Shown piece after piece: positions 30,456 to 55,270 of a DNA stretch of 64,000 nt. Position 1 is the stretch's first letter. Each line of letters opens with the position of its first letter. The stretch spans positions 59,736 to 123,735 of IMG/VR virus record IMGVR_UViG_3300022752_000027; one strand, written 5' to 3'. The notes under the pieces are model-generated. The model had not been told where the DNA came from. It worked only from the letters and a program-made list of their open reading frames with translations, and did no database searches. This DNA is from a virus. Both the position numbers and the translations under genes were made by a program.

Positions 30456-30746
30456 ATGAGAAATAGTCTTGCTGGAAAATCCAAAGGAAAGTCTACGTCT
30501 GCTAAATACTTTGCTTCTCATCCTGAAGCAAGGGCAAAAAAGAATGCTTATAATAAGGAGTATCATTCTTCAGAAGAGAGGAAGACTTATAGAGCTAAGT
30601 TGAATAAGGCAAACCGTGATGCTGGTACTTATGGTAATAAGGATGGTAAGGATATGTCTCATACAAAGTCCGGAGGTATGGTTAAGGAGAGTCAATCTGC
30701 TAACCGTGCAAGGAACGGAAAAGGAAATAATAAAAGACGTAAGTAA
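30456..30746 (+). CDS. small basic HNH-like protein
   Basis: Very Lys/Arg-rich; DGKDMSHTK...NRARN. Confidence 0.55.
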   Translation: MRNSLAGKSKGKSTSAKYFASHPEARAKKNAYNKEYHSSEERKTYRAKLNKANRDAGTYGNKDGKDMSHTKSGGMVKESQSANRARNGKGNNKRRK

Positions 30747-31093
30747 TGGCAATACCTCTTACCCAATATCCTATACATTCACAGGGTGTTTTAACAGCTG
30801 GTACTAATACATTATTTACTGGACCTGCTGGGTATAACACAACTATATCTGGATTAACCTTTACAAGTAGTGCTGCTAATCTTGTTACTTTAGTTATTAA
30901 TAAAGTAACTCCTGCGTCTTCGGTTACTTCATTTAGTTTTACTTTAGATCCTGGGGATGTATTATGTGATAATACTTCGTATGTGTTACAGGCAGGGGAT
31001 ACTATTGAGGTTACTACAACTGCAGCTAGTACTAATTATATGTTTAGTGGTCAGGCTATGTCAGCTTCAGTGCAATATACAAGCTTTATATAA
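30746..31093 (+). CDS. small beta-rich virion/tail-associated protein
   Basis: Thr/Ser-rich, LQAGDTI motif, coupled to the tail fibre gene. Confidence 0.55.
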   Translation: MAIPLTQYPIHSQGVLTAGTNTLFTGPAGYNTTISGLTFTSSAANLVTLVINKVTPASSVTSFSFTLDPGDVLCDNTSYVLQAGDTIEVTTTAASTNYMFSGQAMSASVQYTSFI

Positions 31094-34000: not shown

Positions 34001-34155
34001 CTGACTATATCATATATCAAGTATCAACAAAATTTGTAGGGACAACTGGTAACTATGGTGGTAACATGGTTGGTCAAATATATTCAACTGCAGGAACAAC
34101 AGCCAAAGAACTTCGTTTTGATTATCATGGTGCATCAGTAAACTTAGTACGATGA
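31093..34155 (+). CDS. long tail fibre protein
   Basis: 1020 aa Gly/Thr/Ser-rich; poly-Gly hinge, RGGTG repeats, internal duplications, ITKGQPVY domain. Confidence 0.8.
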   Translation: MRSIGLTDATGNSYGFPRVTVYGPDGKIKFPTGGGGGGSGTVTSIGITVPSGFNVTPSLITTSGTFAITGAGTTAQYIDGTGALQTFPSIPSFTPSALTKTDDTNVTLTLGGSPSVALLAATSLTLGWTGTLATGRGGTGLSSIGTALQYLRVNSGATGLEYATFPTIPTVNPSALTKTDDTNVTLTLGGTPATSLLQAVSLTLGWTGQLSTSRGGTGLSTIGTSLQYLRVNSGGTALEYATFPSTSGLLHGTASGTNNYTVTISGVTGYADGDAYIIKFTNGNDADSDININGLGVKTLVKQFDVQLTGGDIVSGQELIIMYDGTNFQTLGVAPNQLFAYVTNDDSVTITKGQPVYAAGSAGNRMSVKLAYNTSDTTSAQTVGVVFSTSIAPNQRGFIITQGVISGVNTAAYSAGAQLYLGATAGTLTATKPYAPNHLVYVGIVERANAGNGQIYVKPQNGYELDEIHDVDLKSVGNIPSNNDILTYITGTNNLWKPRSIATILGYTPQAQLNGTGFVKASGTTISYDNSTYYLASNPSNFIPLTALSSTATGLTYTNTTGVFSLTSGYVIPTTSSATNWDTAYTNRITSLTTTGSSGASTLSSNTLNIPNYTLSGLGGVPTSRQLTINGTTYDLSADRSWTISAGISLTTTGTSGNATLVSTTLNIPNYGLNDLSQISVSTSNAREDNYAPTGWPGTSDRVKIIRIDSTNTNYMMSLGGLASPTAGRVVTIVNASAANNLIIIENLSTSSTAANRFRMTSNMAYFLLPTRSITFIYDGTYWTQLSASNPMGLDLFDDCTGGPQNYANGAVGITASISSGTNSGIRAEGDLFGSFGLSTGTTAAGGAAITTQARRAGANNAFALNSDYPYLVVGKLALMQTATVAQDFKVWFGINGDGPTVLNNTFNPIGYNWYYNGSSSSLWDNRSQNAGGTVSQVSSPLTAAVTSVVLGVYKPGGANIRDAVYFYSTDYIIYQVSTKFVGTTGNYGGNMVGQIYSTAGTTAKELRFDYHGASVNLVR
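31375..31824 (+). repeat. in-frame duplication with 78 aa (234 bp) period in the tail fibre
   Basis: PSALTKTDDTNVTLTLGG...LEYATFP occurs twice, starting at 31375 and 31609. Confidence 0.9.
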
Positions 34156-34382
34156 GATATTACATATACGAAATACGTTTTGTGGATTATTTAGGTCAGC
34201 AATGTTTAGTATCAACTCCAGGAGCATGTGAAGATGCACTATTTGATCAAAATTTAGAAGAGATAAAAGCAATAGTTTTTACTCAGGCTAAAGCACTAAA
34301 TAATGATCAGGAGGTAATTGACTTTACATTCTCTATTACTGACATAACAAAGCCTATATATGATGACTTTGTAAACACTTAA
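34152..34382 (+). CDS. small acidic protein, possible fibre assembly chaperone
   Basis: 76 aa, ATGA-coupled to the fibre gene. Confidence 0.45.
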   Translation: MRYYIYEIRFVDYLGQQCLVSTPGACEDALFDQNLEEIKAIVFTQAKALNNDQEVIDFTFSITDITKPIYDDFVNT

Positions 34383-34457
34383 AACTTTTCGTAAAGTTCT
34401 AGGTTTTAAGAAAAATCTTGTGTAAATTAGTAATACAAACTACTAAATTTATATAAA

Positions 34458-36719
34458 ATGTATAAAGCAATTTATTACAATTCTACGGCAATTTATAATA
34501 AGTATAAACTTGCTACAGGTGTTATTCAAGCACATGACCCTTTTAATATGGTTGTACTTGATACAGCAGATAAAACTCCTGGAACATCCACTGAAATTAA
34601 AAACACTTTTACCTTTTCAAGTCTAGATTCTATTCCAGCTAATAAGGCAATTATTAAAATACTTAGTGGATCAGAAAGTTCTTATGACATTGCCGTAGAG
34701 TATCTAAAAAATCAAAAGGTTACAGTTACAGATCAGTTTTATAATCTGGGTATTATTGTAGCCGAAATACCAAAAGGTAGTTATTCTAGTTTTGAATCTA
34801 AACTTAGTACTTGGCTTACCCCTTATGGTTTACAGTATGTAGAGCTAGACGTAGTACATACTATAGATCCAAATTATCAAATTCCATATAGTGAACACTG
34901 GCATCTAGGTAATATCCAAGCACAATGTGCCTGGGACGCTATGGATCCATATGCAGTAAATACAGATGACCCAATACCTGTAACTGCTCCAGGAGGAATT
35001 ACTTATGTTGGAGGTTGTAATCGTCCTGAAGTTGCTTTATTAGATGGGGGTGTTGAAATTAATCATCCCGATCTCATAGGCAGATTAAGTGGTGGCTGTA
35101 ATGTTAATCGCTTTGGCGAAAGTTCAACAAGTCTTAACTGGAATTGTGTAGATAATAACTCTAGTGTAATTCCAATTAATAGTTTTGATAATCATGGAAC
35201 AGCAATGGCAGGAGTTATTGCTGGAAATAATTTGAATTATCAATATAGTTTATCTGCATCTAATAACTATTTACGAGTTCAGGTTTTAAAGATAATGTAT
35301 CCGATAACAACCAATCAATATTATACAAGCTCTACTATACAGATATTGGCAATTAATAAGGCAGTTGCAAATCCTAATTGTGTAGCCATTAACATGTCTT
35401 TTGGAAGCACTGTTTACTCTAGTGCATTAGCAGATGCCATTTTGTATGCAAGAAATGTTGGTAGGGATTGTAAAGGTATTCCTTTATTTGCATCAGCAGG
35501 TAACTATTCACAGTCTAATCCTACTATTTATCCAGCATTGTATGACGGTGTATTACCAATTGCCGCATCTACTGCAGGAAATTTTAAAGCGTCATATTCA
35601 AATATGGGAGATTTTCTATTTGCAGCTGCACCTGGAGTTAATATCATAACTACAGATAGAGTTGGTGCAAATGGGTATTCTACTACAACAAGCTCAAACT
35701 CTACTACTCAGTATGATTCATATTACACAAATCTGGCTACATATAGATATTTTGGAGGTACGTCAGCATCTTGTGGAATTGCATCAGCAATAGCTGGTTG
35801 TATGGTTGCAGTAAATCCTAATATTACAGCAAATCAAATTGAAACTATATTAGCTGATACTGCTGCTCAGACAGGAGGTTATACATATGATCCTAAATCA
35901 AATGAGCTTGGTTATGGGGTATTAAGAATGTGTGATGCTATTCAAAGTGTTATTGATTCACTTCCTGATCAGTTACCTACTATTGATATTTCAACAGAAG
36001 TTACTAGTGGCGCTATTGCTTCAACAACATGTAGTAATATTGGTGTAACGACAACTGTTACAATTAATGAAGGAACCTCAGCTAATATTACTAATATGAC
36101 ACTTGATTACTATGCTTCAAACAGTAGTGCTGCAAATCCTAATATGATTTGGTTATACCAATCTTCATATACCACAGAATCAATAGGAAATTCTGCATAT
36201 ACCAATGATGAGTTTTATGTATCAAATATTCCAGCATTATATAATCCATCAGCATATCCATATCTTATTATAAGATATACTTTTTATGATGCATGCGGTC
36301 ATATTATCTCAGATGGTGAAACAGAAGTAACAGCAATGGTTCCAATGACTCTTACACAAGGTTGTGTAGCAACTGATGCAGCAGTAGAAATTATTAGTTA
36401 TGAGCTTGCTACTGGTGCTAACAATTCAATTCAAAGAAGATTTACTGTAAGATACACCAATACTGGAACAGTGCCAATTACAAACATTTATGTTAAAAGA
36501 GGATGGGTAGGAGGAGCTTATGCTTATCAGGCCATATCAGGATCAAATCTTTCTACTACTGGTGTACTGAATCCGGGTCAAACTAGAACTGCTGTTATTA
36601 CATTTAATCAGCCAGTTCCAGCTTTACCTGCTACTTATTACACACAAATTCTTACTGTAAATGGCAATTCAGATAGTAATCCTGGAAATAATTATGCTTC
36701 CTTTACTATAACTGCATAA
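34458..36719 (+). CDS. S8 subtilisin-like serine protease with CARDB-like C-terminus (copy 1)
   Basis: VALLDGG, HGTAMAG, ASAGN, GGTSAS. Confidence 0.92.
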   Translation: MYKAIYYNSTAIYNKYKLATGVIQAHDPFNMVVLDTADKTPGTSTEIKNTFTFSSLDSIPANKAIIKILSGSESSYDIAVEYLKNQKVTVTDQFYNLGIIVAEIPKGSYSSFESKLSTWLTPYGLQYVELDVVHTIDPNYQIPYSEHWHLGNIQAQCAWDAMDPYAVNTDDPIPVTAPGGITYVGGCNRPEVALLDGGVEINHPDLIGRLSGGCNVNRFGESSTSLNWNCVDNNSSVIPINSFDNHGTAMAGVIAGNNLNYQYSLSASNNYLRVQVLKIMYPITTNQYYTSSTIQILAINKAVANPNCVAINMSFGSTVYSSALADAILYARNVGRDCKGIPLFASAGNYSQSNPTIYPALYDGVLPIAASTAGNFKASYSNMGDFLFAAAPGVNIITTDRVGANGYSTTTSSNSTTQYDSYYTNLATYRYFGGTSASCGIASAIAGCMVAVNPNITANQIETILADTAAQTGGYTYDPKSNELGYGVLRMCDAIQSVIDSLPDQLPTIDISTEVTSGAIASTTCSNIGVTTTVTINEGTSANITNMTLDYYASNSSAANPNMIWLYQSSYTTESIGNSAYTNDEFYVSNIPALYNPSAYPYLIIRYTFYDACGHIISDGETEVTAMVPMTLTQGCVATDAAVEIISYELATGANNSIQRRFTVRYTNTGTVPITNIYVKRGWVGGAYAYQAISGSNLSTTGVLNPGQTRTAVITFNQPVPALPATYYTQILTVNGNSDSNPGNNYASFTITA

Positions 36720-36802
36720 AAATTAGTATTTTTATATCATAATCTAACACGGTAGGTCCTAGATAACTTCTAGGACTTACTTGTGTTATAAAAATAATAA
36801 TC

Positions 36803-38854
36803 ATGAGCAAAATCAACTCTGTTAAATTCAAAGACAAGAAGTCATTTGATAAAAACAAAACAAAGCCTAATGTGCTTGCAATACATGAACCTTTTGGAAT
36901 CATTATCTTTAAAGATGACAATGAGGTAGTTCCCGATACTGCTAAAGTATCCCAAACCAATACAGTAGACGCATCCTTAGATCAGATTTCTACAGGTCTT
37001 GCCATTCTTATTGCTCATGACTATAATGAGGGGTTGGCTTATCTTAAATCTGCAAATGTTGTTATTAAAGAATCATTTGAATTAACCAAAACCTTTTTTA
37101 CCGAAGTTCCTGATTTTATTCCATTTGATTCTTTTTACGGTAGTATCATGTCTACTGGATTGTTTATCAGTGTAGAACCTGATTATATTGTCCCAATGCA
37201 GACAACTGCAGAAACTCCATATACAGGTCATTGGCATTTAGGTGATATGAAATGTGCTGAGGCTTGGACCTTACTTCCTGATGGAGTAGTTAAAGAAGTG
37301 GCCGTACTTGATATTGGTTGCGAAACTACACATGAAGATTTAGCAGGTATGATTAGTTCTACATCTTGGAACTGTGTTACAGATGCCCCAGATGTAAATC
37401 CTATTAGTGAATATGAAAAGCATGGTACATGTTGCTCAGGTGTAATTGCAGCAAATACTGGAAATGATATTGGCTGTAAATCAATCGGTAACAATCACCT
37501 TAAAGTACAGTTCCTACATATTGGCTATAACAGTTCAAGTACGGGAAGTTTTTCTACCTCAGATACTATATGCACAAGAGCAATAAATAAAGCTATTGCT
37601 AACCCTAATTGTGTTGCTGTTTCAATGTCATGGGGAGGAGGTAGCGCATATCCAATATTCAGTAATGCATTAAATAATGCTAGAACAATAGCAAGAGGTG
37701 GAAAAGGTATTCCAATTTTTGCTAGTTCTGGTAATCAAAACAATGCTAACTTTAATCAATTTCCAGCAGCATATCCGGCTGTAATGGCTGTAGGAGCAAC
37801 TACAAGCACTAATACAAGAGCAAGTTTTAGTAACTATGGTCCACTTTTGTATGCCTCTGCTCCAGGTGTAAGCCTCTGGACAGTAGATCGTACAGGTGCT
37901 GCAGGATATGGTCCAGATTCGTATAAAGGATTTTCAGGTACCTCAGCATCTTGTCCAGCAATGGCAGCAGTAGCAGGTTGTATACTTGTGAAGAATGAAA
38001 ATCTTACTGAGGTACAGGTTCGTGACATTATAAAAAATTCCTGCAGAAAACTGGGAGGCTATGTTTATGATTCAACTGGAAAATCCCTAGAACTTGGATG
38101 GGGAATTGTAGATATGTACTCTGCAATTTCATTGGCTGGTGGTACTAATCCTGGTGAACCTACGCCTGGACCTACATATAATATTTTTGGGACTATATCA
38201 TCTCAAGCAACAATCGAACAAGGACAAATTGCTAACATAACTTATTCAGTTATTTCAGATAAAGCAATGACCCAAGATACAGCTGTAGGTGTAAACATAG
38301 CATTTAAAAAACCTGATGGCTCAAGTTTAAACTTCTATTCTGGAAACATAACTATTAGTGCTGACCAGACTACAAAGTCTATGAATATTCCATTTACAGT
38401 TCCTAATACAATCAGCGGTCCATGCCAGTTTATAATGACCGTAGATCCAAATAATTTTGTACAGGAAACAAATGAAAATGATAATGTAGCATTTACGTCT
38501 ATTAATGTAACTCAAATGCCTACACCAACTAATGGTGTTGATGGTGAGATTACAATTACTGGCTATGAATGGGTTGATGCAACAAGGGTTAGAATTAGAT
38601 ATATGCTTACTAATAGAGGCACAACCACTATAACATCTTGGAAAGCAGTAGTTGGTTTTGATGGAATGTCACAGATTACTTGGAATAGAAATGATGTAAT
38701 TGCACCTGGAAAGTATGGTGCCTTTGGTTCTGTATTTAGTAGTAATTTATATGGTACTCTTCCAAATACATTTAGAATCAACGTTACCCAGGTAAATGGA
38801 GTACCGGATTCAAATATTTCTAACAATACTGCATCTATTTTAGTATCTTATTAA
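36803..38854 (+). CDS. S8 subtilisin-like serine protease with CARDB-like domains (copy 2)
   Basis: VAVLDIG, HGTCCSG, ASSGN, SGTSASCP; VDPNNFVQETNENDN. Confidence 0.95.
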   Translation: MSKINSVKFKDKKSFDKNKTKPNVLAIHEPFGIIIFKDDNEVVPDTAKVSQTNTVDASLDQISTGLAILIAHDYNEGLAYLKSANVVIKESFELTKTFFTEVPDFIPFDSFYGSIMSTGLFISVEPDYIVPMQTTAETPYTGHWHLGDMKCAEAWTLLPDGVVKEVAVLDIGCETTHEDLAGMISSTSWNCVTDAPDVNPISEYEKHGTCCSGVIAANTGNDIGCKSIGNNHLKVQFLHIGYNSSSTGSFSTSDTICTRAINKAIANPNCVAVSMSWGGGSAYPIFSNALNNARTIARGGKGIPIFASSGNQNNANFNQFPAAYPAVMAVGATTSTNTRASFSNYGPLLYASAPGVSLWTVDRTGAAGYGPDSYKGFSGTSASCPAMAAVAGCILVKNENLTEVQVRDIIKNSCRKLGGYVYDSTGKSLELGWGIVDMYSAISLAGGTNPGEPTPGPTYNIFGTISSQATIEQGQIANITYSVISDKAMTQDTAVGVNIAFKKPDGSSLNFYSGNITISADQTTKSMNIPFTVPNTISGPCQFIMTVDPNNFVQETNENDNVAFTSINVTQMPTPTNGVDGEITITGYEWVDATRVRIRYMLTNRGTTTITSWKAVVGFDGMSQITWNRNDVIAPGKYGAFGSVFSSNLYGTLPNTFRINVTQVNGVPDSNISNNTASILVSY

Positions 38855-38871
38855 TAGTAAAAAATTAAAAC

Positions 38872-41130
38872 ATGTTCTATTCAATAGTATTCTCAACACA
38901 AAAAGCTTTATTAACAGCTGCTAAGTTACCTGGTGTGCATTCTGTGCACACACCATTACAAATGATCATTTTTGAAGGATCTGTTCCTTCAAAACTTGAC
39001 CCTAAAACAGTAATTTATATATCGGAGCCATATGCCGGAATTGAAGAGGCTAAAACAGGACTAGTAATTTTTACTGCGGCAACTAATAAATTTTTAGATT
39101 TAGTAAACTACCTGAAGAAATCAGCAGTACTTGTTTTAGATACTTTTCCAGAAACAAATATTATCATTACCAGAATGCCTACAATGACAACGTGGACTAA
39201 GTTTAATGCTAAACTTGCCAAAGAAGCATCGTCATTAATTGGATTTGTAGAAGAGGATTTAACATTTAATGTTGTTCCAGATTCTCCAGATTATGCATAT
39301 GGAAATTATACATATGAGCAACATGGTTGGTTAAATTCAATAAATGCAGGAGATTCGTATTCAATGATTTCTGCACTTTCTGGTGAAAAACATGTTGCTA
39401 TTTTTGATTCATCATTTGATATTAACCATCCTGATTTAGTTGGCAGATCTGCATTTAACTGGAACTGTGTTGATAATAATTCAAATGTAGATGTTATTGC
39501 AGGAGATCCATATTATAATTCTTCTTTGGGTCAAATGGATTTTGCATATCCTCAGCATGCTACTGCAATGGCAGGTATTGTTGCGGCAAACTCTACAAAT
39601 GGAATTCTTGTACAGTCTAATACTTTAAATAAAGTAAAGGCACAAGTATTAAAAGTACTTTATCCATATAATATTAATACCCCCACACCAACTATTATCT
39701 ATAACACAACAAATTCTGCGTTGATTCGTGGATTTAATCGTGCTATGTTAAATAATTCTTGTGCGGCAATAAGTATAGCATGGACAGGCTCAGCATTTAC
39801 ATCACAAGTATATAGTGTAATGAATTATGTACTTCAGAGTGCTAGAAATTGTAAAGGTATTCCAATCTTTGTATCTGCAGGTAATGTGCCAACTGACCAA
39901 ATTAATTATTTTCCAGCTGCCTATGGACAAAGCACAAAACTATGCACGATAAGTGGGACATGTTGCGGAACAATAGACCGTGAAAATTCACTAATTGCAT
40001 CATTTTCTAGTTTTGGTATTAATGTTTTTATAGCAGCTCCAGCAGTACAGGTTTTAACAACAGATGTTAGTGGAACATACGGATATTCCTATTCATCAGA
40101 CCCTAGTGTAAATGCTGTAACATATTTCAATGGAACATCGGCATCTGCACCAATTGTTGCTGGAGTAGCAGCATTAATGTCTTTAGTAAATTCAGGTTTA
40201 AGTGTAACAGATATTAGAACAATTTTAAAAAATAGTGCATTGCAAGTCAATCCAGGAACTGCAGAAGGAGAATATAATTATTCAGGAGTTGGTGGCTTTT
40301 TTGATACTGGAGGTAGTAAATCTAATGAGTTGGGATATGGTTTACTTGATCAATATTCTGCACTAATAGGTGCTGCTGCATTTGTACCAGCAACTGGAGG
40401 ATCTGATTTAAGTTTTTCTGAAATTGATATTCCAGATACAATTTATGCTGGAGATACAATTACTGTAAGTTTTGGAATTGATATTGATCCTGGATTTATC
40501 TATCAAGCAACAGGGTGCTCATCTAATAGTATTAAAGTTGCATTTTATAGTTCATCGACTCCGTATTATACGACTGCCAATTGCCCATTGATTTATGAAA
40601 CTACAGTTTATCCAGAACTTGGGGATACTTCAATTTCTAGTACATTCCCCTACACTGTACCATGTAATGCAACTGGTGATGTTTACATTATTGGAAATGT
40701 AGATTATGCAGAGTTATATCATGAAGGTGATGAAACTAATAATATTGGCGTTAGTAATTCAATGACTATAAATGGAATTTTAGCGCCTTGTCAGATTACT
40801 GATTTATCCGTAAGCATTATTTCAAGTTCATTACAGACAAATGGGTATAGATCATTTGTAGTTAGATTTACTAATACAGGAAATACTAATATTACTACTT
40901 TTAACTGGACAAGAGGTTGGTTAAATTCTCCAACTGGATCTCAAACAACAGGTACGTATAACTTTTCAGCAAGTACTCCACTGTTACCAGGAGCGTCAAG
41001 AAATGTTTCTGTAACATGGGCACAGTATGCGGCATCTTTCCCAGCTACTTGGTTTGCAAGAATTAATACTGTAAATGGTGCGCCAGATGCTGTTATAAGC
41101 AATAATACATCAACAATTGAAGTAAACTAA
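38872..41130 (+). CDS. S8 subtilisin-like serine protease with CARDB-like domains (copy 3)
   Basis: VAIFDSS, HATAMAG, VSAGN, NGTSASAP; EGDETNN. Confidence 0.92.
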   Translation: MFYSIVFSTQKALLTAAKLPGVHSVHTPLQMIIFEGSVPSKLDPKTVIYISEPYAGIEEAKTGLVIFTAATNKFLDLVNYLKKSAVLVLDTFPETNIIITRMPTMTTWTKFNAKLAKEASSLIGFVEEDLTFNVVPDSPDYAYGNYTYEQHGWLNSINAGDSYSMISALSGEKHVAIFDSSFDINHPDLVGRSAFNWNCVDNNSNVDVIAGDPYYNSSLGQMDFAYPQHATAMAGIVAANSTNGILVQSNTLNKVKAQVLKVLYPYNINTPTPTIIYNTTNSALIRGFNRAMLNNSCAAISIAWTGSAFTSQVYSVMNYVLQSARNCKGIPIFVSAGNVPTDQINYFPAAYGQSTKLCTISGTCCGTIDRENSLIASFSSFGINVFIAAPAVQVLTTDVSGTYGYSYSSDPSVNAVTYFNGTSASAPIVAGVAALMSLVNSGLSVTDIRTILKNSALQVNPGTAEGEYNYSGVGGFFDTGGSKSNELGYGLLDQYSALIGAAAFVPATGGSDLSFSEIDIPDTIYAGDTITVSFGIDIDPGFIYQATGCSSNSIKVAFYSSSTPYYTTANCPLIYETTVYPELGDTSISSTFPYTVPCNATGDVYIIGNVDYAELYHEGDETNNIGVSNSMTINGILAPCQITDLSVSIISSSLQTNGYRSFVVRFTNTGNTNITTFNWTRGWLNSPTGSQTTGTYNFSASTPLLPGASRNVSVTWAQYAASFPATWFARINTVNGAPDAVISNNTSTIEVN

Positions 41131-41144
41131 TACTATTCATTGGA

Positions 41145-43601
41145 ATGATAAACGCAGTAACATATAAAACAGGTGCTTTATATAAAAAAGCATTAGCTGA
41201 TAAGAATATTTTACAGACACATGAGCCGTTTAATATCATAGTATATGATGACCCGTCTCCTGTAAAAAGGGATATGACGACTATTCGTAGAATTACTGAG
41301 GTTGATGATATTACTAAAGTTCCAACTGGATTAGCGTTATTAAAAGTTAATTGTGATCTTTTTGAAACTCGCTTAGATCCGGATTATCGAATTAATATGG
41401 ACCTTAAATATGAGGCTGAAAAAATCCTAAAAGAAAATAATGTAAAAGTTATTGATACAATACCACTTACATTTGGATATATTGTAGAAATACCTTCTAA
41501 TTTATCTTTTACAAAATTTACTGAAAAAATTAATAAAACATATAATGATCAAAATATTTTTTTAGTAATTGAGGAAGATGTAATTTTTGATGCACAGTCT
41601 TGTGATTACTATGCATGGCCTGATAGTTCTCAATGGCATCTTAAAGATATTCAAGCAAATCAAGCATATGCACTATTAGATCAAGGTGGCTATAACTCAG
41701 AAGATGGTACTACATATGGAGAATGGTATACCAGAGACGTAGCAATTATTGATGGTACAGGTTTTGAACTTAGTCATCCAGATTTATATAATACTGATTA
41801 TCCAGTAGACCATCCTGGTCGTGTTATGACTAGAGAAAACTGGGATTGTGTAAACAATAATAGTAATCCTCAACCAAGTGGTCCAAATGATAAACATGGT
41901 ACCGTCATGGCAGGAATAGCTGCATCAGGATGGGCAGATAGAAGATTTTTAAAAGGTGTTGGTTTAGATCATATTAATGCACAATGTCTTAGAATAGGAT
42001 ATAATGTTGGAATAAATGGTGCATTTTCAACATCAACCACTTTTGTAATAAGGGCTTTAAATAAAGCAATATTAAATACTAACTGTGCGGCAATTGCAAT
42101 GCCATATTCGCATGGAGGATTTTCAGTATTTACTAATATTATGCTAAATAATATTAGATATTTTAGTAGATTTGGAAAAGGAATGTTGGTTTTTGCTGCT
42201 TCTGGAAATAGTGGAGCAAGTAGTATTTCTAATGTTTATCCAGCAGCATATGATAATGTATTAGCTATAGGCGCTAGTACTGTAAGTCATTCAAGAGCTT
42301 CTTTTTCAAACTATGGTTCTGATTTATTTGCAACTGCTCCAGGAGCTTCAATTTTTGCAATTGACCGCTGCTGTAGTAGGGGATATAATATAAATCCAGA
42401 CCCCACCTATGGGTCAGTGACATATTTTAGCGGTACATCTGCATCTGCAGTCATTGCAGCTACTATAGCCGCTACAATGGTTGTGGCAAATCCTGATATT
42501 ACTGCACTACAGATTAAAACAATATTAGAAATTACTGCCAGAAGAATTGGTCCATATACTTATTATTCTACAAGTAATGAGATTGGATTTAATCTCAGTA
42601 CTAATCCTGAAATGGGTAATGGTATTCTAACCCAAGCTACTGCAGTACAAAAAGCACTTGAATATGCTTCAGTAAATCAAACCGCATATTTAAATTATGC
42701 GATAGATACTTTAAGTTTTTCTCAAGGTGACTTTGACAATGGTTTACAGGTTGCAACAGGTAGTGCTGTTCAATGGTTAATGGATATTAGTATTACAAAT
42801 GATTCTCCAGAACCCTTACCAGTAAGTGTAAATACTATTAATGTAAGAGTTTCAGTAACATTAGAAACTGATGGCCCAACACCAACTGCAAGTACACCAA
42901 TGATGCCTCTTTCTAATACTGCCTATATTTATGGACCACAAGATGTCGTGGTTCTTCCTGGAGAAACTATAACAAGGACTGTTACATGCCAGAGTGGAGG
43001 TTTAGAAAGATACAGTTGTCTTTTAGAGGGTAATTATTATTTTGTTGCTAAAATTGATAGTGCCGATTATGTTGTAGAAACAAGTGAAGAAGATAATATT
43101 GTATATATTCCTGTAGAATATATATATACTGAAGGTAGCATTGGATATTGTTCTCAAACCTGTGATCCTACTCAATACCCAGATGTGCAAATAAGAATTG
43201 ATTATTTAACAGTACAAAGGTTGGATCAAGCACTTCCTGCCCCATATACTGGATATTTTTGGAAAATAAAAGCAAGATTTACAAACTTAGACACCATAAA
43301 TGCAAATAGTTTTTGGGTAAGATATAACTGGAATCCAAGTATAATAAGTGGAGTATGGGAACAATGGGTTTTTGAGAACTCTTCGTTTATAAATGATGAT
43401 AATCTTGTACCATATGCCCCACAGTTTCAAATGCTTACACCTTTACTACCAGGAGAATCAAGATATATAGAAAAAATTATTGGATATCCACCATTACAAT
43501 ATCCTGCTATAATGACAGCTGTTGTTGCTATAGTTAATACATGGCCAGTAAATAATATTCAACCAATACATTTTACACAATCGGCTATAATATATCAATA
43601 A
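41145..43601 (+). CDS. S8 subtilisin-like serine protease with CARDB-like domains (copy 4)
   Basis: VAIIDGTG, HGTVMAG, AASGN, SGTSASA; VVETSEEDN. Confidence 0.92.
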   Translation: MINAVTYKTGALYKKALADKNILQTHEPFNIIVYDDPSPVKRDMTTIRRITEVDDITKVPTGLALLKVNCDLFETRLDPDYRINMDLKYEAEKILKENNVKVIDTIPLTFGYIVEIPSNLSFTKFTEKINKTYNDQNIFLVIEEDVIFDAQSCDYYAWPDSSQWHLKDIQANQAYALLDQGGYNSEDGTTYGEWYTRDVAIIDGTGFELSHPDLYNTDYPVDHPGRVMTRENWDCVNNNSNPQPSGPNDKHGTVMAGIAASGWADRRFLKGVGLDHINAQCLRIGYNVGINGAFSTSTTFVIRALNKAILNTNCAAIAMPYSHGGFSVFTNIMLNNIRYFSRFGKGMLVFAASGNSGASSISNVYPAAYDNVLAIGASTVSHSRASFSNYGSDLFATAPGASIFAIDRCCSRGYNINPDPTYGSVTYFSGTSASAVIAATIAATMVVANPDITALQIKTILEITARRIGPYTYYSTSNEIGFNLSTNPEMGNGILTQATAVQKALEYASVNQTAYLNYAIDTLSFSQGDFDNGLQVATGSAVQWLMDISITNDSPEPLPVSVNTINVRVSVTLETDGPTPTASTPMMPLSNTAYIYGPQDVVVLPGETITRTVTCQSGGLERYSCLLEGNYYFVAKIDSADYVVETSEEDNIVYIPVEYIYTEGSIGYCSQTCDPTQYPDVQIRIDYLTVQRLDQALPAPYTGYFWKIKARFTNLDTINANSFWVRYNWNPSIISGVWEQWVFENSSFINDDNLVPYAPQFQMLTPLLPGESRYIEKIIGYPPLQYPAIMTAVVAIVNTWPVNNIQPIHFTQSAIIYQ

Positions 43602-45685
43602 TGATGAAAACAATAAATTCTGTAAAGTTTAAAAGTCAAAGTACTTTTGAAAAGACTAAAGTAAAATCTAATGTTTTACAGGTTCACGAGCCTTTTAATA
43701 TTGTTGTATTTGAAGATGATGCTCATGTAGATCCTGATTTTTCAAAAGTAAAACAAACTAATAAGGTTTCCGATCTAAAAGAAATACCTTCAGGTTTAGC
43801 TACGGCAATTGCATTTGACTATAAAAAAGCAAAGAAATTTTTAAAAGATTCTAATATTGACATAGTAAATGATTTTGAGTTAACTAAAACATTTATTATA
43901 GATATTCCGGATCATACGGCTTTTGAGGATTTTAGAACTCTTGTAATTGGATCAAATCTATTTGCCTCAGTTGTTGAGGATAAGATTATAGAGAGTAAAT
44001 CAAACTTGACAAACTATCCATATTCCGCACACTGGTGGTTAGGTAATATTAATGCATCTTCTGCTTGGTCACAATTAACTGCGCCAGGTTTAGTTGATGT
44101 TGCTGTAATTGACGGAACGGGTTGTGAGGTATCACATCCTGATTTAGTTGGAAAAACAAACCTGAACTGGAACTGCGTAGCTAATAATAGTAATGTAAGT
44201 CCTGTTTCTGATAATGAAAAACACGGTACTCCATGTGCCGGAATTATTGCAGCTAACTGTGCAAACAATGAGCTTGTATTATCTGTTGGAAATGATAAAG
44301 TAAGAGTACAGTTCCTAAAAGTAGGGTATAACCACACATCTACAGGCTCTTGGAATACATCAGATGCAATTTTAACAATGGCTGTAAATAAGGCAATTGC
44401 AAATACAAATTGTGTTGCAATATCAATGTCTTTTTACACTTCTATTTCTGGAGGATTTAAATCAGCATTAACAAGTGCTAAAGTATCAGGTAGAGGGGGA
44501 AAAGGAATGCCTTTGTTTGCATCTTCAGGTAATGATGGTGCATCATCAGTTACTCAAGCTCCTGCTGCATGGCCAGAAGTAATGGCTATTGGTGCATCTA
44601 ATAGTACTAATACTAGATCATCTTTTTCAAATTATGGAACTAGTCTTTTTGCAGCAGCTCCAGGATCATCAGTGCTTACTACAGATAGAACTGGCGGAAA
44701 AGGCTATTCTATAAATGTAGACCCTACTTTAGATGCTGTAACTTACTTTAGTGGTACTTCAGCTGCCTGTCCTGTTATGGCCGGTGTAGCTGGTACAATG
44801 ATTCTTGCAAATCCTAATTTAACAGAATCTCAAGTAAGAACAATACTTGCACAGACAAGTAGAAAACTTGGCGGCTATAACTATACTAGTGGCAAATCCC
44901 TAGAATTAGGATATGGCATTGTTGATCAAAACGCTGCAGTTGCAGCTGCTATTGCAGCAACTACAGTAGTACCGGATGTTCCAAACATCAGCATGATAAT
45001 GTCAGCACAAGGTACTGCTGTACAGGGAAGCATAATTCCAATTAACTATACTGTAAATTTATCTACTGCACAAACTAGTGCCTTAACACTAAGAGTATCA
45101 TTTTATAGATCGTTGAATACTATTCTTGAAGCTAATGATACATTGATTCAAACAGAAGTAATTACAGTACCAGCAAGTACTACCATGTATACTTCTGGCT
45201 TTAATTATACTGTTCCAACTAACATAGTTGGAAATCTATATGTTATTGGTTTTGTGGACAGTACGAATATTGTTTCTGAGCCAATTGAAACTGATAATAC
45301 AGCAAGTGTCGTAATTAATGTAGTTACTACAGGTCCAGTACCATCAAATAGTGGTTTAGATTTATCTGTGCAGCTTATTCAAACTAGATATGCTACCAAT
45401 GGAAAACTTTATGTAAAACAAAAGTTTACTAATGTCGGTTCAGTTGCAATCACAAGTTATAAATTTGTGAGGGGATTTATTGGTGGCACACAGCAAACTA
45501 AACAGATTAATAATGTCAATATGCAACCTGGACAATCTGTAACAAGTGAAACTGTTTGGAGTAACTATCCTCCAGCATATCCAGCAACTTATAAGATAAC
45601 TATAACAGAAGTAAATGGAGTAGTTGATTCAGTTGCCACAAATAATGTTAGTACAATTCAAGTAAATGAGAATGTTGCGCTATGA
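43601..45685 (+). CDS. S8 subtilisin-like serine protease with CARDB-like domains (copy 5)
   Basis: VAVIDGTG, HGTPCAG, ASSGN, SGTSAACP; VDSTNIVSEPIETDN. Confidence 0.95.
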   Translation: MMKTINSVKFKSQSTFEKTKVKSNVLQVHEPFNIVVFEDDAHVDPDFSKVKQTNKVSDLKEIPSGLATAIAFDYKKAKKFLKDSNIDIVNDFELTKTFIIDIPDHTAFEDFRTLVIGSNLFASVVEDKIIESKSNLTNYPYSAHWWLGNINASSAWSQLTAPGLVDVAVIDGTGCEVSHPDLVGKTNLNWNCVANNSNVSPVSDNEKHGTPCAGIIAANCANNELVLSVGNDKVRVQFLKVGYNHTSTGSWNTSDAILTMAVNKAIANTNCVAISMSFYTSISGGFKSALTSAKVSGRGGKGMPLFASSGNDGASSVTQAPAAWPEVMAIGASNSTNTRSSFSNYGTSLFAAAPGSSVLTTDRTGGKGYSINVDPTLDAVTYFSGTSAACPVMAGVAGTMILANPNLTESQVRTILAQTSRKLGGYNYTSGKSLELGYGIVDQNAAVAAAIAATTVVPDVPNISMIMSAQGTAVQGSIIPINYTVNLSTAQTSALTLRVSFYRSLNTILEANDTLIQTEVITVPASTTMYTSGFNYTVPTNIVGNLYVIGFVDSTNIVSEPIETDNTASVVINVVTTGPVPSNSGLDLSVQLIQTRYATNGKLYVKQKFTNVGSVAITSYKFVRGFIGGTQQTKQINNVNMQPGQSVTSETVWSNYPPAYPATYKITITEVNGVVDSVATNNVSTIQVNENVAL

Positions 45686-47781
45686 AACTAAATGCCGTAA
45701 AATTTAAAGATCGTAAAGCCTTTGATAAGAATAAATCAAAGGCAAATGTTGCTGCTTTCTACGATCAGCACAATGTAATTGTCTTTAAAGATAAAGCATA
45801 TGTAAAACCAGATAAGGTAAAAGTTTCTCACGTTGAACAAATTTTAGATGTTAAATATGGTGTACCGACCAGTATTGCCATACTTAAACCATCAAATTAT
45901 CACATAGGTTTAGGCATTTGCGAAAAAATGAATTTAAAAATTATAAATTCATATCCGCAAACAAGGACAATCATAGTTGAAATTCCTGAGCATATGTCAT
46001 ATACAAAATTTTATGAAACAGTTTTTAGTGCTGGATCATTTGATTTTATTGAACAGGATATAATTACTCAATTTGGAACTCATGCAAATTTTGCCTATAA
46101 CGACCATTGGCAATTAATTGCTATGAATGCTCAGGAAGGATGGAATATTATTGCACAAAATCCTCCAGTACAAAATAATATTGTAACAGTAATAGATATT
46201 GGATGTGAAACAACGCACCCAGATTTAACTGGTCAAGTAATTAATACACTTAATACTGTAACAAATACAACAGATGTTTTACCTTCATCACAGTATGATA
46301 ATCACGGAACTTGTTGTACAGGATTAATTGTTGCAAATCCAACTAATGGAATTAATACAATAGGTGTGGCAGGTCCATATACTAAAGCAAGTTTTGTAAA
46401 TCTTGCCGTTATGGATAATCCCCATACATTTTCAACAAGCACAACACAAAAAGTGCAGGCTATTAATCATGCCATTAGTATGCCTAACTGTGTTGCAATT
46501 TCTATGTCTTTTGGTGGAGGCAACATTGAACAAGCATTTGAAGATGCTCTTGTTGAGGCACAACAGATCGGAAGAGGAGGTAAAGGAATAGTTTGTTGCG
46601 CATCATCTGGTAATCAAGGATTATTTAATGATGTTCAATATCCTGCTTATTATCAAGGTGTTTGTAGTATAGGTGCACTTGATTTTAATGACTTTGATTA
46701 TAAAAAAGCAAGTTATTCTAACTACGGTGTAGAATTATTTGCTGCAGCTCCTGGATCATATACACCAACTACAGATAGAAGTGGTTCAGCAGGATATTCA
46801 CTAGACAATACTACTTATTTTAGCGGTACATCAGCCGCATGTCCTGTATTTGCTGGTGCTGTTGCTGCAATAGCAGCAGCATCTCCTAATCTAACAGCGG
46901 AACAAATAAAAAATATAATTAGAGAAAGTTGTGTCCAAATAGGTGGATATAATTATAACGGCAATCCTGTTTATCCAAACAGATCGTATGAAACAGGTTA
47001 TGGAATGATTAGTATTGAAAATGCTGTTGCTCTTGCTGTTGGCGGAACTGTTTCACCAGATCCAACAATTCCTATAAATGTTCGTGTTACTGTAAGTACT
47101 GTATCATTATCATTTCCAAATAGCACAGTGCCACTTACATATACAATTATATGTAATAAGGTTTTACAAACAGACACTAATATTTCAGTTACTATTTTTA
47201 AATCTGCTAATAATTCACCTGTTTTAGAACCGGCAGATACAGTACTTACCACATTAACTATTACTATTCCTGCTGGTCAATATCGTTATCAGGGATCTTA
47301 TGATTTTGTAGTAGATAATTCCTGGATAGGTTTAACTTATATAGGTGTTTATGCGGCATCATTGCCAGGAGAAACATTTACTGTTGATAATTATGGATTT
47401 AGAGCAATTCAAGTAATAGGTGAAAGTGCTCCACCAAACTTAAATTTAAAGGCCAGAATTCAAAAAATTACTCTAAATTCTGATTTTACAAAAGCTATTG
47501 TTTATTTTGATATTCAAAATACAGGTTTAACACCAGTAACAAGATTTACAATTAAAAAAGGATTTGTTGGGTATGAGGAGTATGTTTATGAAGTAATTTA
47601 TGATCTTCAAACTGATAAATATTATGTTGAAGAAACAGCATGGGAATTACTTCCTCCTCCAAATTTCTTGTATAGCACACCCTTTAAAATTGAAATTACT
47701 TCTGTAAATGGAATTTTCCCTGATGATGTAACAACAGATAATAGTGCATCTTATAACATAATTCCATCAGTTAATCCTTAA
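45682..47781 (+). CDS. S8 subtilisin-like serine protease with CARDB-like domains (copy 6)
   Basis: VTVIDIG, HGTCCTG, ASSGN, SGTSAACP. Confidence 0.95.
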   Translation: MKLNAVKFKDRKAFDKNKSKANVAAFYDQHNVIVFKDKAYVKPDKVKVSHVEQILDVKYGVPTSIAILKPSNYHIGLGICEKMNLKIINSYPQTRTIIVEIPEHMSYTKFYETVFSAGSFDFIEQDIITQFGTHANFAYNDHWQLIAMNAQEGWNIIAQNPPVQNNIVTVIDIGCETTHPDLTGQVINTLNTVTNTTDVLPSSQYDNHGTCCTGLIVANPTNGINTIGVAGPYTKASFVNLAVMDNPHTFSTSTTQKVQAINHAISMPNCVAISMSFGGGNIEQAFEDALVEAQQIGRGGKGIVCCASSGNQGLFNDVQYPAYYQGVCSIGALDFNDFDYKKASYSNYGVELFAAAPGSYTPTTDRSGSAGYSLDNTTYFSGTSAACPVFAGAVAAIAAASPNLTAEQIKNIIRESCVQIGGYNYNGNPVYPNRSYETGYGMISIENAVALAVGGTVSPDPTIPINVRVTVSTVSLSFPNSTVPLTYTIICNKVLQTDTNISVTIFKSANNSPVLEPADTVLTTLTITIPAGQYRYQGSYDFVVDNSWIGLTYIGVYAASLPGETFTVDNYGFRAIQVIGESAPPNLNLKARIQKITLNSDFTKAIVYFDIQNTGLTPVTRFTIKKGFVGYEEYVYEVIYDLQTDKYYVEETAWELLPPPNFLYSTPFKIEITSVNGIFPDDVTTDNSASYNIIPSVNP

Positions 47782-47786
47782 TTACT

Positions 47787-48155
47787 ATGAAAAAATTTCT
47801 ATACTACTTACAGAAATATGATGGTATATGGAGTATACCATTAGCATTCATGGGTTTTTTTCTAGCTGGCCAATACAGCTTTGAATACTTTGGGGATGCA
47901 ATTATCTCTACAGAATACCTACAATTTGCAGTACTCACATCATTAATTATGGTATTTGCTAATTTTGTAGTATTCTTAGGTATTAACTTTAACTTTAGAA
48001 GTCTTCAGAGATACTTCTACTCAAAAGAAATCAAATATGACATACAAGCTAATCTAACAACATGGCAAAGAATAAAGTTATACTTATTAGTCTACTTTGG
48101 ATTTTTATTCATCTTCCTCTTTATTCTATATTTGCTAATGACGGTTACTGCGTAA
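47787..48155 (+). CDS. putative holin
   Basis: Three hydrophobic segments, directly upstream of and overlapping the endolysin. Confidence 0.6.
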   Translation: MKKFLYYLQKYDGIWSIPLAFMGFFLAGQYSFEYFGDAIISTEYLQFAVLTSLIMVFANFVVFLGINFNFRSLQRYFYSKEIKYDIQANLTTWQRIKLYLLVYFGFLFIFLFILYLLMTVTA

Positions 48156-48643
48156 GGGTAACAGCATCAAGTTATGTTGGAGTAAGAGAGAAGGGAGGTA
48201 ATAACCAGGGGTTTACTAAATGGGATTTTAGGCAACTTATGGTAGAAAATGGATGGAAACCAGGTAATGCGTGGTGCGCATATTTTGTAAAAGCAATGCT
48301 TAATGAATGTGGAGTACCTAATAATATTACTGGTTGGTCTCCAACAGCTTACAATAAGAATGACGTAATCTTTACTGACGGTAAATTTTATAAGTCTTTT
48401 AATGATGGTGATGTACTAGTTATGACTTTAAGTTATCCAGATAAGTATGGAACAACTAGATATAAAGCTATAGGGCATACAGGAATAGTAGATAAAATTG
48501 GTCAGTATTCTATAAGGACAATAGAGGGGAACACTAATGAACAGGGTATGAGAGATAGCAGAACTACTGACGGAGTATATTATAAAATCAGACCATTAAC
48601 TAAAAAATTACATATTACAAGATGGGCAAAACATCAAAACTAG
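48062..48643 (+). CDS. CHAP-domain endolysin with N-terminal signal/SAR segment
   Basis: GVREKGGNN, AWCAYFV, GHTGIV, TIEGNT; hydrophobic N-terminus. Confidence 0.85.
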   Translation: MAKNKVILISLLWIFIHLPLYSIFANDGYCVRVTASSYVGVREKGGNNQGFTKWDFRQLMVENGWKPGNAWCAYFVKAMLNECGVPNNITGWSPTAYNKNDVIFTDGKFYKSFNDGDVLVMTLSYPDKYGTTRYKAIGHTGIVDKIGQYSIRTIEGNTNEQGMRDSRTTDGVYYKIRPLTKKLHITRWAKHQN

Positions 48644-49044
48644 GAAAAATAGGGGTTATACTAGCAGTAGTTATTATACTACTATCTATATTCTTTAGTA
48701 TTAAAACTTGTACTAAAAAACCAGTAACTAATCCAGCTGTTGATAGACTGCATGAAATAAACGATAGTTTATATGAAGTCATTGAAGAAAATAACCGAAT
48801 AGCAAATGATCTTTACAATAAATTGGATTCTATAACAATTATATCGGATACAATTATTCAACGTCAAGAGATTACCAATAAATACTATAAAAATGAAGTT
48901 TATAACATTCTTAGCAGTAATGATGCTGATGCCAATACTCAGTTTAGGGCAACCCTCAAAAAGTCAGACTCCCTCCTTAAAAGTGGATTCTACTCCAAAA
49001 CTTACGACTTACGATCTTCAGCTAATGAATCTAAACTTCACTAG
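48622..49044 (+). CDS. putative spanin component (N-terminal TM + coiled coil)
   Basis: TM helix ending KTC, coiled coil, follows the endolysin. Confidence 0.55.
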   Translation: MGKTSKLGKIGVILAVVIILLSIFFSIKTCTKKPVTNPAVDRLHEINDSLYEVIEENNRIANDLYNKLDSITIISDTIIQRQEITNKYYKNEVYNILSSNDADANTQFRATLKKSDSLLKSGFYSKTYDLRSSANESKLH

Positions 49045-49336
49045 TATGTACTATTGGTACAACACGGCAATGGAAATTGATTCAGTGTACCAGCTAGAGA
49101 AGTTAAAGACACACTACTATTCTAAGATTACTGGCATTCAAGCTGATAGCTATCAGACCTTGCAGGAAATCTATGATAATAAGCAAGCTATTGAAAAAGC
49201 AATAGCGCAAGAAAAGGAGATGCAGATAAAAGACCTAAAGAAAAAAAACAGACGGCTTATATTCCAAAATGTTGGATTATCTGTTGGTGTTGCATGTCTT
49301 TCACTTACAACAATTTATTTTGCAATTGTTCCATAA
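48893..49336 (+). CDS. putative second spanin component (signal peptide + C-terminal TM)
   Basis: Overlaps 48622..49044 by 152 nt; signal peptide ending SLG-Q; C-terminal hydrophobic helix. Confidence 0.5.
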   Translation: MKFITFLAVMMLMPILSLGQPSKSQTPSLKVDSTPKLTTYDLQLMNLNFTSMYYWYNTAMEIDSVYQLEKLKTHYYSKITGIQADSYQTLQEIYDNKQAIEKAIAQEKEMQIKDLKKKNRRLIFQNVGLSVGVACLSLTTIYFAIVP

Positions 49337-49377
49337 TAAGATATATTTTTGTATATTGTTAATATAAAATTTTACTC

Positions 49378-50490: not shown

Positions 50491-50512
50491 TAAACTTTAA
50501 AAGTGTCATAAT

Positions 50513-52363: not shown

Positions 52364-52366
52364 GCA

Positions 52367-53044: not shown

Positions 53045-53056
53045 AATATTAATAAG

Positions 53057-53161: not shown

Positions 53162-53162
53162 C

Positions 53163-53426: not shown

Positions 53427-53427
53427 A

Positions 53428-54786: not shown

Positions 54787-54805
54787 ATTTTTTGTATATT
54801 ATAAT

Positions 54806-55156: not shown

Positions 55157-55180
55157 AATTACTAAAATACTTTTTAATGC

Positions 55181-55210: not shown

Positions 55211-55270
55211 ATAACTCTTGTAAGTTTAAACTTATTGTGTATATTTGTGTTATAATTTAAACCAACAGTT

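Follow-up and report, generated by a model that had tools for sequence, protein, structure and literature searches.

The last 64 kb of the 123,735-base IMG/VR virus record IMGVR_UViG_3300022752_000027 (a record scored as complete by CheckV) contain six consecutive genes for subtilisin-type proteases of family S8, lying on one strand between a putative tail-fibre gene and the genes for lysis (Table 1). We call this whole stretch of 64,000 nucleotides (nt) the window and count positions from its first letter. The integrity of the six genes, the domain architecture of their products, their ancestry, their variation in copy number and their linkage to lysis genes are established below. Judged by their sequences, the six copies are full-length, active-looking pro-subtilase paralogues; the S8 gene is normally single-copy in related phages, and copy 2 of the array is the orthologue of that single gene. 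Our data further support the descent of this phage family from a Bacteroidota protease that left the cell by way of Sec and the type IX secretion system (T9SS).

The array accounts for all S8 matches (n = 6) of the 123,735-base record. Every copy scores well as Peptidase_S8 (87.5-125.9 bits, E 1e-24 to 3e-36, with a Pfam cut-off of 21.8) and matches phrog_3677, annotated as "protease" (E 1e-18 to 4e-38). Compared with each other the copies are 24.7-43.9% identical, with near full-length alignments for most pairs, and the catalytic Asp196, His246 and Ser436 and the oxyanion Asn349 (copy 1 numbering) are invariant across all six, the motif around the histidine reading HAT in copy 3 and HGT in the other five. 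Copy 4 stands out in the alignment by insertions within its prodomain and C-terminal region. A structural model of copy 2 shows the subtilisin fold, superimposing on subtilisins with template-modelling (TM) scores of 0.86-0.89 (normalized to the target) and a root-mean-square deviation of about 3 Å. A preliminary description, made from the letters of the window alone, had reported six consecutive intact S8 open reading frames (ORFs) that keep Asp, His, Asn and Ser, the last three of them overlapping at start and stop codons; Pfam, PHROG and the alignment bear out the former, and the overlaps are real, measuring 1 nt between copies 4 and 5 and 4 nt between copies 5 and 6. The remaining copies are separated by 83 nt (1/2), 17 nt (2/3) and 14 nt (3/4). 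At 25-44% identity the duplications are not recent but old.

The same four residues are retained in 42 of 42 aligned members from arrays and single-copy loci, and in 48 of the 49 rows of a larger alignment (A2). One row in 49, P0022, an orthologue of copy 5, has Glu at the position of the catalytic Asp (VAVIEGDGC). Among the window paralogues mean identity is highest in the S8 domain (40.5%), followed by the first small domain (28.2%), the prodomain (26.3%) and the second beta-sandwich (25.4%), and lowest in the first beta-sandwich (18.6%), so that the two beta-sandwiches are the least conserved parts. The segment aligned with SxGG differs from copy to copy (SFGS, SWGG, AWTG, PYSH, SF-Y and SFGG), and we take it to be the substrate-binding wall of subtilisin.

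From N- to C-terminus the proteins consist of an N-terminal module (a small domain plus a subtilase-type prodomain), the S8 domain and two CARDB-like beta-sandwiches, an order read from an AlphaFold2 model of copy 2 built from 49 family members (mean predicted local distance difference test score, pLDDT, 86.8). The N-terminal 135 residues were also modelled alone (pLDDT 92.6) and compared with 48,161 solved chains by VIA-align. The best structural matches of residues 62-135 are prodomains of subtilases, i.e., those of PC1/3 (Z 8.6), EpiP (8.0) and PAM protease (7.5), followed by subtilisin BPN' (7.2), PCSK9 (6.8), Aspergillus alkaline protease (6.5), pro-subtilisin E (6.2) and fervidolysin (6.1). 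Given the placement of this segment directly before the S8 domain and the many prodomain rows among its matches, it is reasonable to regard it, on the strength of the model, as a subtilase prodomain. An indirect link leads the same way, as the profile of the N-terminal module reaches a protein (P0157) whose residues 103-175 match Pfam PF22148, Fervidolysin_NPro-like, with E 1.2e-15. A Foldseek comparison of the N-terminal model with the PDB gave no match at E <= 0.001. For residues 1-56 no convincing fold match was obtained among the solved chains (best Z 5.6, a microcompartment protein), and a search of the ESM Atlas with residues 1-58 yielded scores of 0.76-0.77, below the level of a lead. 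As for the C-terminal part, the preliminary description had given CARDB-type domains to every copy; this holds for copies 2 and 3, where Pfam places CARDB above its cut-off, and the copy-2 model shows the two beta-sandwiches, but the match is weak in copies 4 and 5 and none was found by Pfam in copies 1 and 6. Five cysteine positions, mostly conserved, occur in the S8 proteins.

None of the six copies has a signal peptide, the highest 19-residue hydropathy within the first 60 amino acids (aa) being at most 0.92, compared with 1.94-2.77 for the membrane segments of four proteins of the lysis cassette. A T9SS sorting domain (Por_Secre_tail / TIGR04183) was found neither with NCBIfam at E <= 0.1 nor with Pfam at E <= 10 in the C-terminal ~250 aa of each copy. 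Hydropathy, Pfam and NCBIfam are in this respect in full agreement with the preliminary description, which had noted both absences. With the signal peptide and the C-terminal sorting domain both missing, we rejected the idea that the proteins are T9SS cargo in the phage.

A profile search with the N-terminal module matched 39 representatives among 1.84 billion. All 31 matches of at least 600 aa also contain an S8 catalytic domain, and the other eight are fragments of 44-150 aa; being found only together with S8 domains, the module is a prodomain and not a general virion anchor. A bacterial counterpart exists: the only match in 401 sampled Bacteroidota genomes (L071, 1104 aa), flanked by ordinary cell genes, comprises a signal peptide, the N-terminal module (residues 33-173, first small domain included), S8, four CARDB-like repeats and a Por_Secre_tail domain (44.8 bits), and aligns collinearly with copy 2 over 624 columns at 32% identity. 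The shared N-terminus would accordingly be an ancestral prodomain, present in the bacterial homologue too, and no new phage module. Among solved structures the best sequence relative is mirolase, which Tannerella secretes through the T9SS (E 3.5e-48). With a bacterial counterpart this clear, complete with signal peptide and T9SS domain, the evolutionary path can be followed, and a Bacteroidota host is suggested.

Phylogeny adds to this picture. Two quick trees were made, both supported only by the Shimodaira-Hasegawa approximate likelihood-ratio test (SH-aLRT) and rooted on a distant Lewinellaceae S8 protein (L065). Tree 1 took in those 22 single-copy loci, out of 49, that were selected because their ORFs were clean and full-length; in tree 2 seven of those were left out (L016, L017, L018, L019, L044, L049 and L058) and L071 entered with its first 640 residues. 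Of the 47 rows of tree 2, 38 form one phage clade (SH-aLRT 99), composed of the six window copies, 14 array members (from L059, L062 and L063), 15 single-copy phage genes and three representatives. The clade excludes L071 as well as P0151 and P0155, which have hydrophobic, signal-peptide-like N-terminal segments. The preliminary description had proposed that a host-type protease was captured, deprived of its export signals and expanded inside phages: the capture and the loss are supported by L071 and by a clade that leaves out the forms with signal peptides, and the expansion by the union of all phage copies in one clade. We infer the direction of transfer from quick trees with a distant root, and it rests also on the wider bacterial distribution of such enzymes. 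Within the phage clade six orthologue groups are seen. All single-copy genes fall together with copy 2 (SH-aLRT 99 in both trees), copies 1, 3, 4 and 5 cluster (97 in tree 1, 83 in tree 2), and copy 6 stands apart in a clade of its own with members of L059, L062 and L063 (95 and 100, respectively). The copy-2 genes of array-bearing phages are scattered within the copy-2 clade, so arrays have been either lost repeatedly or exchanged.

Scanning IMG/VR with the six-copy alignment returned 52 loci. Exactly one S8 ORF is present in 49 of these and five are present in L007. L038 carries one full S8 gene and a partial second one on the opposite strand at the contig end (7420-8016), and in L050 (2458-4561) the S8 gene is split into two ORFs of 466 and 246 aa, i.e., a frameshift or a broken copy. 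In every one of the 51 loci besides L007, the S8 gene is more similar to copy 2 than to any other copy of the window, at 51.5-76.7% identity. The search for syntenic arrays and copy-number variation that the preliminary description had suggested was productive, as arrays of five, five and four copies were found in relatives: L059 has copies 1, 2, 4, 5 and 6 and lacks copy 3, L062 has copies 2, 3, 4, 5 and 6 and lacks copy 1, and L063 has copies 1, 2, 5 and 6 and lacks copies 3 and 4. Orthologues of copy 1 are seen in L059 and L063 (37-39% identity), of copy 3 in L062 only (42%), of copy 4 in L059, L061 and L062 (45-52%), and of copy 5 in L059-L063 (78-90%). Copy 5 further has relatives of 74-90% identity in 24 database clusters, located on contigs as long as 123,897 bases; when IMG/VR was scanned with this one protein, only the L007/L059 contig was met, and a metagenome scan gave four loci. 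In runs X3 and X4, which belong to two other studies, position 34435 is joined to 36803 with 19 other letters and copy 1 is omitted. Copy number thus varies by whole cassettes, which are gained and lost as such, and it is in one lineage that the family has grown to 4-6 old, diverged paralogues. A hairpin with a 13-bp stem followed by a T-rich run (36751-36781, plus strand) is located inside the 83-nt gap between copies 1 and 2 and falls within the stretch absent from the X3 and X4 contigs without copy 1. Terminator-like sites are not enriched in the region (12 found, 8.7 +/- 2.7 expected), and like the sigma-70-like promoters (91 found, 96.3 expected) and the Bacteroidota -7 motif TAnnTTTG (76 found, 86.7 expected) they provided no transcription signal that could be used.

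The array was not created by the assembly, since one 23,956-base contig of run X1 (possibly the source sample) covers positions 33166-49900 with 0 differences. This contig crosses both edges of the array without a break, which bears on the question of continuity raised in the preliminary description; stretches without cover in runs X2-X4 were left out of the evidence. The same kind of array with the same flanking genes is also present on four further contigs from other records. Host DNA, or a chimera of bacterial protease genes with a phage contig, might be suspected as the catalytic domain is of bacterial type and a 2.9-kb contig binned in a bacterial metagenome-assembled genome (MAG) encodes a copy 64% identical to copy 2. 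However, the recurrence of arrays between the same phage genes and the span of the X1 contig argue strongly against this origin, as does the occurrence of the N-terminal module in only 1 of 401 sampled Bacteroidota genomes, where it belongs to a single gene with export signals. The possibility that the same array resides in bacterial chromosomes, also raised earlier, was pursued by scanning 185,579 species genomes with two patterns, resulting in two loci and no array; both patterns came from the N-terminal module alone and might overlook prophage copies that have diverged. Taken with the rejection of an assembly chimera on the basis of the X1 contig, we consider an artefact next to impossible. 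The 2.9-kb contig (L064 / L069, in a Phycisphaerales MAG bin) encodes a full-length member of the family with a clear N-terminal module (E 7e-63); here a piece of phage DNA has probably been binned with a bacterial genome, and the contig is therefore no evidence for the host.

The surroundings of the S8 gene in other phages show with which genes it keeps company. In the 51 loci besides L007, homologues of the lysis genes come directly after S8 in eight and directly before it in seven, and lie about 5.5 kb downstream in eight more; in the other 28 loci no lysis homologues were found in the fetched DNA, many of these contigs being short. In a group of loci that we call the L035 type (positions 9396-17493 in L035), S8 overlaps the end of a gene for an XkdF-type (Peptidase_S78_2) protease and is followed by genes for a coiled-coil scaffold-like protein, Phage_portal and DUF6712 and then by the shared lysis genes. 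This is a different structural module, yet its S8 is 52-57% and its lysis genes are ~60-70% identical to those of the window. Similarly, L010 (8250-19357) resembles window positions 31093-62845 in tail-protein, S8 and lysis genes at 55-77% identity (77% for S8, 65-77% for S8 and lysis genes together), but in terminase at only 28% and in portal at only 23%, a contrast which points to the exchange of a module for host interaction and lysis among distantly related phages. From the comparisons with L010 and the L035-type loci it follows that the S8 gene, often together with lysis genes, moves between unrelated phages.

What these enzymes do for the phage has to be argued from such context, and the timing, latency, release, maturation and substrates of the proteases are what we infer. 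Gene order, absent export signals, the prodomain and a secreted ancestry are best fitted by a latent pro-enzyme, and we tentatively postulate, at somewhat under an even chance, that the array encodes zymogens which are freed at lysis and cut host surface or matrix proteins. The enzymes would be made late, together with the products of tail-fibre and lysis genes, would fold in the cytoplasm with their own prodomains as guides and would stay latent there; having no export route of their own, they could leave only when the cell is burst by the cassette of holin, endolysin and spanin-like proteins. Maturation would then take place outside the cell, perhaps aided by calcium as in mirolase, followed by the cutting of protein components of the host surface or the surrounding matrix, with adhesins, receptors on debris and vesicles, and the surface shields of neighbouring cells as possible targets. 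Divergent substrate clefts and C-terminal binding domains might give each paralogue targets of its own. Leaving the route open, we give close to even weight to a broader proposal, i.e., a diversified protein-degrading set used outside the cell, either lysis-freed or carried by the virion, that would destroy Bacteroidota receptors, adhesins and surface shields.

Several points weigh against zymogens that are freed at lysis. The Z scores of the putative prodomain are middling and its fold is the common ferredoxin-like one, and the Pfam prodomain models gave no match on the N-termini of the six copies (140-160 aa) at E <= 10 other than chance-level ones. Residues 1-56 are conserved among orthologues about as well as the catalytic domain (67-82% in the copy-2 group), and in most orthologues more than the prodomain proper, which weighs against the proposal as a disposable propeptide would not need such conservation. 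In the L035 type, S8 sits between the XkdF-type protease and the scaffold-like and portal genes, away from the lysis genes. The block of the window also holds tail-fibre-like genes (31093-34155 and 49378-50490, the latter matching phrog_892), and the order of the genes would agree just as well with a role on the virion, since variable tandem cassettes of surface-degrading enzymes are the known pattern of tail spikes.

Proteases attached to the tail or capsid (e.g., through the C-terminal beta-sandwiches) could clear a protein coat or adhesin layer ahead of the receptor, and such virion proteins would not need a signal peptide. The array is placed between the tail-fibre/depolymerase-like gene with its small ORFs and further tail-fibre-like genes, its copy number and membership vary cassette by cassette as in multi-tail-spike phages, and the C-terminal Ig-like domains evolve fast, as is typical of proteins on the surface of virions. 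All the same, we hold this role to be unlikely, though well worth keeping in view, given that the N-terminus is a subtilase prodomain found in the secreted bacterial homologue too, that the N-terminal module occurs only with S8 and so offers no anchor common to other tail enzymes, and that no trimerization or beta-helix element is visible in the copy-2 model. In addition, the gene is found at 52-77% identity in phages of very different structural modules, all of which would have to provide a common docking site.

The company of lysis genes, on which release at lysis partly leans, would likewise suit an accessory of lysis itself, in which the proteases, after the holin fires, cut envelope proteins in the periplasm and thereby help the endolysin and the spanin-like proteins. 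S8 adjoins holin-like or endolysin genes in 15 of the 51 loci in either order, with eight more at ~5.5 kb, S8 and the lysis cassette travel together among phages with unrelated terminases, and a gap of 5 nt separates copy 6 from the holin-like gene of the window. But a complete cassette (holin-like, endolysin and two spanin-like genes) is already there, and one conserved envelope target would poorly explain six diverged paralogues with variable binding domains; besides, if the holin were of the small-pore kind, as an endolysin with its own hydrophobic N-terminus might imply, a 75-kDa protease would be held back until breakage. We regard this explanation as distinctly unlikely.

Without export signals the proteins must start out in the cytoplasm, and the L035-type gene lies among head-morphogenesis genes next to the XkdF-type protease, both of which would agree with work inside the cell, whether degrading host proteins for amino acids, disabling defence proteins or regulators, or processing phage proteins. 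However, by ancestry and by their CARDB-like domains the proteins belong with secreted surface enzymes, the five cysteine positions and the calcium dependence of the secreted nearest solved relative would fit an extracellular enzyme, and broad proteases would endanger the phage's own proteins during assembly. Head-maturation proteases, moreover, are single-copy and belong to other families. An intracellular function hence seems to us quite improbable. As to head maturation in particular, we rejected it for a protease of family S8 in six copies between tail-fibre and lysis genes, with a position among head genes only in the L035 type.

The nearest known systems put these proteins into perspective. 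The phage copies have the S8 domain and the N-terminal profragment in common with mirolase of Tannerella forsythia (PDB 8ehe) and with L071, and CARDB-like repeats follow S8 in L071 as they do in the phage copies, four in the former compared with two beta-sandwiches in the latter; the phage proteins differ from both in lacking a signal peptide and a T9SS C-terminal domain (CTD), in standing in a late block and in being present six-fold. Fervidolysin is a secreted bacterial keratinase. Its structure (PDB 1r6v, 671 aa) has the same layout of prodomain, S8 and two beta-sandwiches at about the same length (710 columns aligned by Foldseek, 16% identity), and the phage proteins carry in addition a domain of ~56 aa before the prodomain. 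The KLIKK proteases of Tannerella forsythia, according to PMC4404884, follow the order signal peptide, profragment, catalytic domain and C-terminal extension with a CTD, and mirolase is described there as calcium-dependent. Like the phage array, the KLIKK loci number six proteases of secreted type with profragment and catalytic domain in a Bacteroidota setting (PMC4404884), but these belong to different catalytic classes, bear signal peptides and CTDs and are chromosomal, whereas the phage has six S8 paralogues. Each KLIKK gene lies immediately downstream of an ORF for a potempin inhibitor, according to PMC9890683; with gaps of at most 83 nt there is no room for inhibitor genes in the phage array.

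Among phages, annotated subtilases are single genes with automatic names, including phrog_3677 and the subtilase of Bacillus phage BMBtp16, and the UniProt entry A0A6J5R7S5 (uncultured Caudovirales phage, 683 aa) is a single-copy member of the family, 53% identical to copy 2. Against 50,697 phage records copy 2 yielded only two partial matches (27-30% identity, 43-45% coverage) and no array. Full-text literature searches, in which subscription journals were thinly covered, found no subtilase array in a phage, in line with the preliminary description, and no description of the role of this S8 family in phages. Single-copy phage subtilases are known already from annotation. Multi-tailspike depolymerase cassettes consist of several tandem, swappable tail-spike genes, and the array resembles them as a tandem, cassette-wise variable set near tail-fibre genes; it differs in the protein substrate to be expected and in having neither a shared tail anchor nor, in the copy-2 model, a beta-helix or trimer signature. 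The phage envelope enzymes known to us act on polysaccharides, peptidoglycan and lipids. The words "protease" and "proteolytic" are absent from the main text of a 2018 review of the enzymes with which phages breach envelopes (PMC6116005). A family of pro-subtilases without export signals, widespread in freshwater phages, would indicate that phage enzymes are directed at host surface proteins too. If the proposed use outside the cell is true, the array would be a protein-targeting counterpart of the multi-depolymerase tail-spike sets directed against polysaccharide capsules, built from a host T9SS protease minus its export signals, with lysis standing in for the secretion system. The paralogues also constitute a naturally occurring set of proteases of one family, which differ in their clefts and binding domains and could be expressed and compared side by side.

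Table 1 Features of the array-bearing gene block (window positions) and domains of copy 2
Feature	Position	Strand	Remarks
96-aa gene	start 30456	+	phrog_6437; first gene of the array-bearing block
115-aa ORF	30746-31093	+	coupled to the tail-protein gene; no Pfam or PHROG match
Putative tail fibre / depolymerase-like protein	31093-34155	+	1020 aa; conserved N-terminus, variable remainder
76-aa ORF	34152-34382	+	overlaps the stop codon of the 1020-aa tail-protein gene
S8 pro-protease copy 1	34458-36719	+	753 aa; Pfam PF00082 E 5.1e-28; triad intact
S8 pro-protease copy 2	36803-38854	+	683 aa; Pfam S8 E 2.6e-36; CARDB 27.2 bits
Copy 2, domain N1	36803-36970	+	small alpha/beta domain, residues 1-56
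Copy 2, putative prodomain	36980-37198	+	beta-alpha-beta-beta-alpha-beta, residues 62-129 in the full model
Copy 2, S8 core	37220-38140	+	about residues 140-446
Copy 2, beta-sandwich 1	38174-38518	+	about residues 460-570
Copy 2, beta-sandwich 2	38534-38851	+	about residues 580-683
S8 pro-protease copy 3	38872-41130	+	752 aa; Pfam S8 E 1.3e-24
S8 pro-protease copy 4	41145-43601	+	818 aa; Pfam S8 E 2.3e-27
S8 pro-protease copy 5	43601-45685	+	694 aa; Pfam S8 E 4.4e-33
S8 pro-protease copy 6	45682-47781	+	699 aa; Pfam S8 E 4.1e-30
Membrane protein, holin candidate	47787-48155	+	122 aa; several hydrophobic segments, maximum hydropathy 2.77; no family match
Endolysin	48062-48643	+	193 aa; phrog_9589, phrog_21357; Pfam CHAP 28.1 bits; hydrophobic N-terminus
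Two overlapping small membrane-protein genes	48622-49336	+	140 and 147 aa; resemble spanins solely in position and topology

The plus-strand block runs from the 96-aa gene through the 115-aa, 1020-aa and 76-aa ORFs to the six S8 genes, the 122-aa gene, the endolysin gene and the two membrane-protein genes, and continues after the lysis cassette with more tail-fibre-like genes, an exonuclease gene, the terminase and the portal. The gene upstream of the array had been called a tail fibre in the preliminary description, a name that can be kept only as putative: the 1020-aa protein has no PHROG match, and its one pointer is a sub-threshold match to Pfam Phage_depo_C (E 4.9e-4, residues 699-784). 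In many related loci it is matched over short stretches only, by ORFs of widely differing length. Homologues of the 115-aa ORF precede the tail-protein homologue in L021, L026, L058 and L063, and the 76-aa ORF has counterparts at the corresponding site behind the tail-protein homologues of L062 (42% identity, E 9e-12) and L026 (45%, E 2e-7); it may be a fibre assembly or chaperone gene.

Downstream, the endolysin of the preliminary description stands, as phrog_9589 and CHAP attest, and its holin rests on hydrophobic segments only. The holin candidate adjoins the endolysin gene in all 13 loci that hold both, out of 15 with lysis genes beside S8. The two ORFs overlap by 94 nt, an overlap present in related loci too, and this arrangement together with the hydrophobic start would fit a signal-anchored or secreted CHAP endolysin. 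Of the spanin-like pair, which is kept 3' of the endolysin in related loci, one protein has an N-terminal membrane segment and the other an N-terminal signal-like and a C-terminal hydrophobic segment; the only family match of the two is a sub-threshold one to DUF4755 on the 147-aa ORF (E 0.0081).

The phage itself appears to be an uncultured freshwater (lake-water) relative, and a distant one, of crAss-like phages, a kinship drawn from terminase, portal and head-protein matches. The terminase (57878-60094) is 25-26% identical to those of uncultured crAss-like phages over 85-89% of its length, its matches comprising 130 records, mostly uncultured phages along with Bacteroides and Flavobacterium phages. 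For the portal the match is phrog_6547 (E 4.5e-94); the major head protein, located at the start of the record, matches phrog_11589. Outside the window, at record positions 40472-56217, two adjacent giant ORFs of 3338 and 1910 aa come after the gene for a virion structural protein of 1732 aa (phrog_37948), an arrangement also known from crAss-like genomes. Three minus-strand tRNA genes (Leu-TAA, Arg-TCT and Lys-CTT) are situated between two gene blocks at window positions 25062-25620.

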